64,000 bases of DNA, taken from assembly GCA_963712535.1 (NCBI GenBank), contig CAVQIK010000008.1, positions 34,798-98,797 of the forward strand, read 5' to 3'. The position numbers and the translations under genes are program-made. The number at the start of each line of letters is the position of its first letter. Positions within the stretch are counted from its first letter, which is position 1. The DNA is from an uncultured delta proteobacterium (lineage in GTDB: Bacteria; Desulfobacterota; SM23-61). Below, piece by piece: positions 49,220 to 50,295 of this stretch. The notes below the pieces were generated by a model that saw only the letters and a program-made list of their open reading frames with translations, ran no database searches and was not told the DNA's origin.

Positions 49220-49246
49220 AGAAGGCCGGGTTTTCCCCGGCCTTCT
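49220..49246. terminator. Hairpin between convergent genes
   Basis: 11-bp stem AGAAGGCCGGG/CCCGGCCTTCT with a 5-nt loop. Confidence 0.65.
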
Positions 49247-49284
49247 TGTTGTCGGGCCGCCCACGGCGGCGATTCCGCTCACCT

Positions 49285-49497
49285 TCAGGTGAATCGCCCC
49301 GGCCGGGAAGCACATGCGGAATTCGTTCCGCTTTCGCCGGCCTTGGATTCCCCGCAGGAGAAGGAGGAAATAATCACCCGCTGGGGGTCGGCGGCCCCGC
49401 ACTTGGGGCAAACGATCTTCAAATCCTTCTCCGACGCCCCATGGATCATCTCGAACCGGTTGGGACACTTGCAACATTGATACTCATAAATAGGCAC
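49285..49497 (-). CDS. FmdB-family zinc-ribbon protein (possible C-terminal Sec, extension to 49279)
   Basis: MPIYEYQCCKC...FE...CPKCG. Ends RFT-TGA-AGG-TGA. Confidence 0.85.
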   Translation of the reverse strand: MPIYEYQCCKCPNRFEMIHGASEKDLKIVCPKCGAADPQRVIISSFSCGESKAGESGTNSACASRPGRFT

Positions 49498-49583: not shown

Positions 49584-49745
49584 TTACCCTAAAGCCATCA
49601 GCAACCCGATCAACGCCCCGAAAATCACGGTGAGATACGGGTTGCAGGTGAGGCCTCAAGCGCTTCCGGTTTTCGCGGAAACGAGGCTCAAGCCGTATCC
49701 CACCGCGGCTCCAATCGCCAGCCCGGCAATAATTTTTAAACTCAT
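49584..49745 (-). CDS. Small two-helix membrane selenoprotein candidate, DUF6132-like (not in ORF track)
   Basis: MSLKIIAGLAIGAAVGYGLSLVSAKTGSA-TGA(49658-56)-GLTCNPYLTVIFGALIGLLMALG*, directly downstream of trxA. Confidence 0.7.
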
Positions 49746-49761: not shown

Positions 49762-50094
49762 TTATAAGGCCTTTTTGACAATGTTTTCAAGCTGGCTCTT
49801 GGGAACCGCCCCCACCACCTGGTCAAAGATCTTTCCGTCCTTGAACATGATCAGCGTGGGAATCCCCCTCACGCCGTAACTGGCCGGGGTTTTCGGGTTC
49901 TCATCGACGTTGACCTTCGCGAACTTGATCTTGTCTGAATACTGGGTGCAGAGCTCTTCAAAGATGGGTCCGATCATCCGGCACGGCCCGCACCAGGACG
50001 CCCAGAAATCGACGATGGTGGGTTGTCCCGACTCCAGGACTTCTTTTTGGAATGAAGCGTCGGTTACGGCGATAGGCCCGGTTCCCTCCCCCAT
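49762..50094 (-). CDS. trxA: Thioredoxin
   Basis: VDFWASWCGPC, KVNVDE, VRGIPTL. Confidence 0.96.
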   Translation of the reverse strand: MGEGTGPIAVTDASFQKEVLESGQPTIVDFWASWCGPCRMIGPIFEELCTQYSDKIKFAKVNVDENPKTPASYGVRGIPTLIMFKDGKIFDQVVGAVPKSQLENIVKKAL

Positions 50095-50295
50095 AGTGTC
50101 CTCCTTCGTGCAATTTCTCTAACAAAAAATTACTCTTTAGGTGCCCCGATTCCAGAAAAGATTCACCCAAAGAAAATTTCTTATGCTCAGATCAATTTTA
50201 TCAAACACTCTCCGTTATAAGAAGAAAAAAGGCCCGTGGCCGCACGGCTGCGTTCGGCTCTTTTTCGTGCCCTTCTTCTCAATTTCATGGCTTTC

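Follow-up and report, generated by a model that had tools for sequence, protein, structure and literature searches.

A 2026 review tabulates 119 prokaryotic selenoprotein families (PMC13188914), and the database BSepDB covers 111 bacterial selenoprotein families. The catalogued membrane selenoproteins, namely the MerT-like C/SxxU proteins, SO_0444 (UxC), YeeE/YedE and SaoP (PMC13188914), commonly carry selenocysteine (Sec, U) in or beside a transmembrane segment with a Cys nearby, and their selenocysteine insertion sequence (SECIS) lies within the coding region. The same arrangement is predicted for a 53-residue protein encoded in a 64,000-nucleotide stretch of contig CAVQIK010000008.1 from an uncultured delta proteobacterium (GenBank assembly GCA_963712535.1), referred to here as the window. 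However, this small protein has no Pfam or NCBIfam relation to the catalogued membrane families, is much smaller than their members, spaces Sec and Cys as U-x3-C, and has a SECIS-like element that occupies most of the remaining open reading frame (ORF). By its catalogue entry, TsoA, the LULAXC-motif selenoprotein (NF045695), resembles the small protein in its U-x3-C spacing, its multi-selenoprotein neighbourhood and its thioredoxin (Trx)- or DsbD-like partner, but NF045695 did not match any member of the small-protein clade at E ≤ 1.

Neither the small gene nor the FmdB-like gene downstream of it, which appears to encode Sec close to its C-terminus, was found among listed selenoproteins. The 119-family table contains no entry for DUF6132 (PF19628), the domain family to which the small protein is distantly related, and no form of FmdB with C-terminal Sec (PMC13188914). 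Neither of the two is named in the texts on BSepDB and deep-Sep, and a full-text literature search for DUF6132 returned nothing relevant. NCBIfam selenoprotein models (TsoA NF045695, NF049953, NF041197, NF041211 and others), used as a proxy for the families of Haft & Tolstoy 2025, gave no match to any member of the small-protein or FmdB-like groups at E ≤ 1. We rate the small protein as a previously unlisted selenoprotein family, and the FmdB-like protein as a probable second one, that may work together with thioredoxin.

The small gene lies on the minus strand and encodes MSLKIIAGLAIGAAVGYGLSLVSAKTGSA-U-GLTCNPYLTVIFGALIGLLMALG, with TAA as its closing stop and an in-frame TGA at codon 30. A reading made beforehand from the nucleotide sequence without database searches (the sequence-only reading) had proposed this ORF with UGA in a loop, and its coordinates and translation were reproduced. 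The loop motif is G-S-A-U30-G-L-T-C34-N-P-Y. An AlphaFold2 model built from a 24-row alignment places a helix at residues 2-25, the loop at 26-35 and a second helix at 36-52, with a mean predicted local distance difference test (pLDDT) score of 79, and both helices are Gly-rich with GxxxG-like patterns. A search of the PDB with a sequence profile of the small protein found nothing meaningful, and the Foldseek matches to the AlphaFold2 model were all generic hairpins of transmembrane helices, at E ≥ 3, from which no structural homologue is claimed. The charge distribution of the protein gives no call on the side of the membrane that the loop faces. In public protein collections the small gene is present only as a 29-residue stump (P0002), as gene callers halt at the UGA. 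Taken with the comparisons below, we are highly confident in predicting that the locus encodes a genuine 53-residue selenoprotein with two transmembrane helices and a loop that carries Sec30 and Cys34.

The TGA is conserved wherever the small gene was found in its phylum. Searched with a profile, 401 genomes from across the Thermodesulfobacteriota gave 49 matches in 46 genomes (~11%) from 28 genera; the in-frame TGA is present in all 49, with zero Cys forms. All 36 distinct sequences that were read out have the TGA at the same column, followed by a frame that stays open for 23 further codons, and share the pattern G-x-x-U-x-[LI]-x-C-x-P. In one family (f13) the frame extends a few more polar residues beyond these codons. 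When stops were read through in a six-frame search, 15 of 16 genomes from the window's family, and one genome from another family, yielded an orthologue interrupted by a single in-frame TGA. The TGA also occurs in four of four independent metagenome assemblies of the locus, which were reached via identical TrxA proteins, and in two of these the small gene departs from the window copy at 7 and 9 other bases. A six-frame search of the window's own genome with PF19628 gave no match, because the stop interrupts the short match.

Homologues from elsewhere carry Cys where the small protein has U. Among 1.84 billion representatives searched exhaustively with HMMER, 21 relatives were identified, either of ~50-60 residues or longer fusions, and Cys occupies the U column in 20 of them, as the sequence-only reading had anticipated for position 30; the remaining one has Trp, presumably from a code-4 gene call. 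The consensus of the Cys forms around this column is G-G-x-C-P-L-T-C-N-P-Y. Two Cys-form loci were also identified by a pattern scan that demanded Cys at the U column.

With C substituted for U, the window protein matches DUF6132 at E=3e-4 and 20.8 bits, under the 23.2-bit gathering threshold. PF19628 matches 16 of 24 aligned relatives, the best at 2.7e-13, and distant members of the Sec clade score at most 10.4 bits. A profile-profile comparison with hhalign of 18 Sec-clade sequences against 13 sequences carrying PF19628 gave 98.9% probability and an E-value of 2.2e-17 over 54 columns, with U aligned to the invariant Cys of the DUF6132 motif G-x-C-P-L-T-x-N-P. The two groups are of equal length and share the two-helix architecture, the Gly-rich helices and the invariant Cys column followed by x-[LI]-T-x-N-P, and DUF6132 genes likewise adjoin or are fused to thioredoxin. 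They differ in that the Sec clade has Sec for the invariant Cys, and Gly, Ala, Thr or Met for the Pro that follows it. The second Cys also differs in position: canonical DUF6132 has it five residues before the invariant Cys, whereas in the Sec clade, as in the Cys relatives closest to that clade, it comes four residues after this column. These alignments bear out the DUF6132-like pattern proposed from sequence, with UGA at the Cys column and a second Cys four residues on. Because of the profile match and the position of U on the invariant Cys, the window protein is predicted to be a distant, sub-threshold branch of DUF6132 that bears Sec at the key position.

Bacterial SECIS elements are taken here as stem-loops that start from ~11 nt after the UGA and have an apical loop 16-37 nt downstream with a G in the loop. 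In the small gene, a lower stem GCAACCCG/CGGGTTGC pairs nt 14-21 with nt 51-58, counted from the U of the UGA, after a 10-nt spacer, and the apical loop of the window hairpin is at ~33-39 nt. Minimum free energy (MFE) folds of 36 of 36 distinct sequences contain a hairpin from nt ~14/15 to 57/58 after the UGA, and the loop of the consensus hairpin, GGCCUG, starts at ~33 nt. In the gap-free alignment of the 36 sequences, 76.5% of cells are paired, versus 31-45% when the 3' arm is slid. Compensatory double changes occur in 12 of 17 pairs, and the covariation score is 0.276; shuffled alignments gave 0.177±0.011, with none of 500 reaching the observed value, and slid registers gave no more than 0.145. 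Much of the covariation couples the Asn/Ser/His codon of the C-N-P motif with synonymous changes in the G-L codons 11 residues further on, for example from CAACCC/GGGUUG to CAAUCC/GGAUUG and UAGCCC/GGGCUG. The 8-bp stem that had been noticed 10 nt past the UGA in the window is conserved and covarying among relatives, and in its distance and shape the hairpin fits described bacterial SECIS elements, although its tip is atypical in the window, and it is treated here as a candidate SECIS. An Rfam scan of the locus returned only sub-threshold chance matches, and Rfam holds no bacterial SECIS model. A possible outer stem (nt 4-7/63-66) closing the SECIS is 64% paired and shows little covariation, and is not claimed.

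The sequence-only reading depended on the presence of Sec machinery, most of which was identified. The genome encodes a tRNA-Sec with anticodon UCA (C14:180340-180438), selB (C20:59213-61298) and selD (C5:580098-581019), and SelD appears to be a selenoprotein itself, with an N-terminus that reads AAG-U-AAK. The component not found is selA, which is considered below.

The small gene is the second of three genes in a predicted transcription unit (Table 1). It is separated by a 16-nt gap from trxA, and an 86-nt gap separates it from the FmdB-like gene, so the gene order proposed beforehand is correct for the window. On current evidence the three genes are bracketed as one predicted unit by the terminator-like site upstream and the hairpin downstream. 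The downstream hairpin is common with a convergent lipoprotein gene, has a weak T-run, and was not called by the pattern scan. Among relatives in the window's family, trxA is upstream in 15 of 16 (the 16th is cut by a contig end) and an FmdB-like gene is downstream in 14 of 16. The proposed synteny is therefore kept in window-family relatives with readable flanks; the other families differ, as described below.

A second family, f13, has an operon composed of an ECF sigma factor, a zf-HC2 anti-sigma factor, the small Sec gene, trxB and FmdB-U (L099-L102; G283, G256, G138, G069). Genomes of f13 are assembled in 5-10 contigs and might derive from isolates. The trxB product matches TIGR01292 above its cut-off (381.7 bits), and the best NCBIfam similarity of the anti-sigma factor is to RsrA, below cut-off at 29.4 bits. 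SigR-RsrA controls a disulfide-stress regulon that includes trxBA in actinomycetes. The f13 operon is similar in that the ECF sigma and zf-HC2 anti-sigma genes precede the small gene, trxB and FmdB-U, but it belongs to another phylum, and the window family has no sigma or anti-sigma gene at the locus. The ECF sigma/zf-HC2 arrangement of this one family points to a possible response to thiol-oxidative or membrane stress.

Thioredoxin also recurs beside the Cys forms. One lies after a thioredoxin gene and another before one, and DUF6132-Trx fusions form three representative clusters (P0014, P0023 and P0004; L060, L062). In two of these fusions, a lipobox-like end before the Trx domain hints that the domain may be extracytoplasmic. 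One thioredoxin gene beside a Cys-form DUF6132 gene contains an in-frame TAG (L065:3213-3542), either a sequencing error or the mark of a pseudogene. ECF sigma factors adjoin Cys forms as well, and in two unrelated lineages DUF6132-type genes are located between ferritin and rubrerythrin-like genes (L034, an uncultured Elusimicrobia, 202-1392; L050, 1696-2220), which adds an oxidative-stress flavour to the DUF6132 contexts. The thioredoxin-fed module that had been suggested from gene order gains from the trxB of the f13 operon and from the Cys forms that adjoin or are fused to Trx; its redox function is a deduction from these contexts. The recurrent genomic association is, as judged from gene neighbourhoods, the thioredoxin system, and a metal role remains a live rival.

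The FmdB-like gene encodes an FmdB-family zinc ribbon with a CxxC...CxxC domain, scoring 49.9 bits with TIGR02605 (cut-off 31.3) and 49.7 with PF09723 (cut-off 34.4). Its frame reaches a first TGA at 49287-49285, continues through AGG at 49284-49282 and ends at a second TGA at 49281-49279. In 15 of the 15 relatives with the gene, the end reads P-G-(S)-R-F-[S/T/K]-TGA, followed by one codon (Gly, Arg or Glu) and a stop (TGA, TAA or TAG). A GC-rich hairpin follows at the same distance in all 15, starting 13-17 nt past the first TGA, and its stem sequence is lineage-specific (CCCCGCC/GGCGGGG, GCUGC/GCAGC, GGCCACC/GGUGGC and CCGC/GCGG). This is probably a second selenoprotein, with Sec as its penultimate residue. 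The suggestion of up to two Sec proteins in the unit is strengthened by this tail, which ends the gene in 15 of 15 loci and is followed by a covarying hairpin. Every close database homologue of the FmdB-like gene has been called only to the TGA, at 68-70 residues.

The same ending is widespread. A TGA, one or two codons and a second stop form the tail of nearly all of the ~30 FmdB-family genes in the phylum whose ends were read (L070-L098), for example CGSGRFT-U-GT, CGSGAFT-U-AA and SSGHG-U-K. More than half of the phylum genomes sampled have FmdB-like genes. The tail appears to define an FmdB subfamily, found throughout the phylum, with Sec near the C-terminus. A catalogued FmdB selenoprotein from Global Ocean Sampling (GOS) data (Zhang & Gladyshev 2008) is likewise an FmdB/TIGR02605 zinc ribbon, but it has Sec inside the ribbon (CxxU/UxxU), whereas here all four ribbon Cys remain Cys and the TGA lies 2-3 codons before the final stop. 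In its near-C-terminal Sec (penultimate or antepenultimate) and 3'-untranslated hairpin, the FmdB-like gene resembles the 'UXX-star' form described by Haft. Neither the UXX-star model nor the other NCBIfam selenoprotein models matched the FmdB-like tails.

Table 1. Features of the three-gene unit and its borders, in coordinates of the window.
Feature	Position	Strand	Basis or remark
Terminator-like site after upstream SCP2-domain gene; trxA starts a new unit	50234..50247	-	Pattern scan
trxA, 110 aa, WCGPC, first gene of the unit	49762..50094	-	TIGR01068 129.6 bits (cut-off 96.8); PF00085
Predicted 53-aa two-helix membrane selenoprotein gene, distant DUF6132 branch	49584..49745	-	TAA included
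UGA codon 30, read as Sec (predicted)	49656..49658	-	Homologue column, Cys homologues and 4 assemblies
SECIS-like hairpin within coding region	49601..49645	-	MFE folds and covariation, 36 sequences
Second conserved hairpin, across stop codon	49579..49597	-	GGCTTTA-GGG-TAAAGCC; compensatory changes
FmdB-family zinc ribbon, ...SRPGRFT-U-R-stop (Sec probable)	49279..49497	-	TIGR02605/PF09723
GC-rich hairpin GCCGCC-GUG-GGCGGC, candidate SECIS for C-terminal Sec	49256..49270	-	17-32 nt after FmdB UGA
Terminator-like hairpin GGCCGGG-GAAAA-CCCGGCC closing the three-gene unit	49224..49242	-	Read from sequence

The sequence comparisons indicate that the UGA is probably passed in translation because the in-ORF hairpin, contained in the remaining 69 nt of coding sequence, serves SelB and Sec-tRNA(Sec) as a SECIS of the bacterial type. 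Sec stands at the invariant Cys of DUF6132, and the product is therefore predicted to be a Sec-bearing, sub-threshold branch of that family. For its function, we hypothesize from genomic associations and general selenoprotein chemistry that Sec30 and Cys34 act at the membrane interface as a redox-active selenol/thiol pair. In each cycle the pair would pass through a selenenylsulfide and then be reduced again by the adjacent thioredoxin system, which is represented by TrxA in the window and by TrxB in another family. The small protein might work with the co-transcribed FmdB-type zinc ribbon ending in -Sec-X. Candidates for the oxidant or substrate are a disulfide relay, a soft metal, and oxidants of the lipid or quinone type.

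The strength of this proposal differs among its parts. As a whole, a selenoprotein with an in-ORF SECIS, a Sec/Cys redox pair and re-reduction by Trx is likely to be the best explanation of the locus. That the small protein functions specifically as a thioredoxin-coupled redox protein is, on the gene contexts, an evenly balanced proposition. More tentative, at a little short of even chances, is the broader proposal that two uncatalogued selenoprotein families jointly form a thioredoxin-driven membrane redox module, in some lineages under an ECF-sigma/ZAS anti-sigma pair, that is widespread in Thermodesulfobacteriota.

Several observations weigh against the redox selenoprotein reading. Both selB and selD need one frameshift each to read through, and selA could not be identified in the assembly, which is 75.6% complete, either by hidden Markov model or by tblastn with the SelA of two relatives, which recovered no fragments. 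The frameshifts look like assembly indels, and single-base indel errors probably also lower the completeness estimate of the assembly; 43 of the 46 carrier genomes have selA. At the RNA level, the apex of the window hairpin differs from those of its relatives, since the smallest loop in its MFE fold is UUU and lacks the usual G. At the level of gene context, the synteny with trxA and FmdB is limited to two families, and the neighbours in other families are MFS, WrbA, EamA, GalT or methyltransferase-like genes. Finally, some Cys forms adjoin metal-efflux genes (a CDF transporter; an RND/CzcB-like set), and for these a metal role fits as well as a redox role.

The last of these points leads to the most probable rival, in which the small protein binds or transfers a soft metal or metalloid (Hg, Cu, Cd, Zn or As) in the membrane, like the two-helix Mer transport proteins, while thioredoxin only keeps the Sec/Cys ligands reduced and FmdB-U serves as a metal-binding partner. 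Cys-form DUF6132 genes adjoin a CDF transporter, and one cluster consists of ECF sigma, anti-sigma, DUF6132, YgaP-like transmembrane, OEP, CzcB-like and RND genes. Moreover, catalogued selenoproteins include some with Sec as a ligand (MerT-like, the SO_0444 Cu/Zn efflux protein and MbdU; PMC13188914), and the partner of the small protein is a zinc ribbon with Cys/Sec tails. However, across ~25 inspected loci no metal transporter or mer, ars or cop gene adjoins a Sec-clade gene, and the partners that recur are redox genes, namely TrxA, TrxB, fused Trx, rubrerythrin-like and WrbA-like. We regard a metal role as unlikely, although it deserves to be kept in view.

Still less probable is a minimal transmembrane thiol relay, a miniature CcdA/DsbD that would take reducing equivalents from cytoplasmic thioredoxin and deliver them to a partner outside the cytoplasm. 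The fusions P0014 and P0023 prompt this reading, as a lipobox-like sequence (L-S-G-C / S-A-G-C) terminates the helix that precedes the Trx domain. In P0023 the Cys loop also contains two Arg, and an acidic linker is present, which would place Trx outside and the loop inside. The Gly-rich GxxxG helices also suggest oligomers. Against this, the topology argument is based on two sequences, a lone Sec/Cys loop at one membrane face cannot itself cross the bilayer, the TrxA of the window lacks a signal peptide, and the nearby genes do not include one for a periplasmic Trx-like client. Redox cycling by the Sec/Cys pair at the membrane interface is preferred over this relay.

Two further rivals concern the UGA itself, and we consider both to be very improbable. 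In one of them, the UGA is a plain stop, only a 29-residue peptide is made, as the gene callers have it (P0002, 29 aa), and what is conserved downstream is an RNA structure or a separate element. The sequence after the UGA behaves as protein-coding sequence. Across 23 sequences, the variability at the three codon positions after the UGA is 0.64, 0.26 and 1.11 bits, and the ratio of nonsynonymous to synonymous polymorphism (pN/pS) is 0.36 after the UGA versus 0.46 before it. The C-terminus and the C-N-P motif are kept at the protein level while the DNA varies synonymously and with compensation. Such third-position variation and a pN/pS below the pre-UGA value are difficult to reconcile with termination at the UGA, as are the 23 open codons past the TGA in 36 of 36 sequences and the Cys at the U column in homologues. 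A separate downstream ORF was rejected: it would lack a start codon and a ribosome-binding site, and conservation starts right at the UGA. The relatives have clear Shine-Dalgarno sequences ahead of the ATG.

In the other, for which the missing selA and the indel errors of the assembly could be cited, the UGA is read as a non-Sec residue (Trp, Cys or Gly, by a near-cognate or suppressor tRNA) or is an assembly error or pseudogene lesion. Against this, the same TGA is shared by all four independent assemblies and by 46 genomes, the genome encodes tRNA-Sec, SelB and a SelD of the Sec type, and 43 of 46 carriers have selA. In addition, TGA is the stop of many normal genes, and a SECIS-type hairpin stands at the right distance. 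Genome-wide reassignment of TGA (code 4 or 25) was rejected on related grounds; TGA is the ordinary stop of many neighbouring genes, and this is therefore not a genome with a reassigned code.

If the Sec reading is correct, few natural selenoproteins would be shorter than the small protein, and the FmdB-U tail would add one selenoprotein to about half of the genomes in the phylum. For DUF6132, a domain of unknown function, Sec would mark a catalytically essential residue, and the trxA, trxB and fused-Trx contexts point to its likely reductant. The small gene is invisible to annotation pipelines, which find only families for which a model already exists. The locus may also offer a compact case in which to study the coexistence of SECIS and coding constraints, and selenol chemistry at a membrane interface.

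All 36 sequences have a second conserved hairpin, located immediately 3' of the SECIS-like one, and its stem shows compensatory changes. Its pattern is GGCCTTA-GGN-TAAGGCC, in which TTA/TAA covaries with TCA/TGA, and in most families the stop codon lies within it. Family f13 keeps this hairpin although its ORF runs past it. In the window, the hairpin forces the use of a rare TTA Leu codon in a genome of 57% GC.

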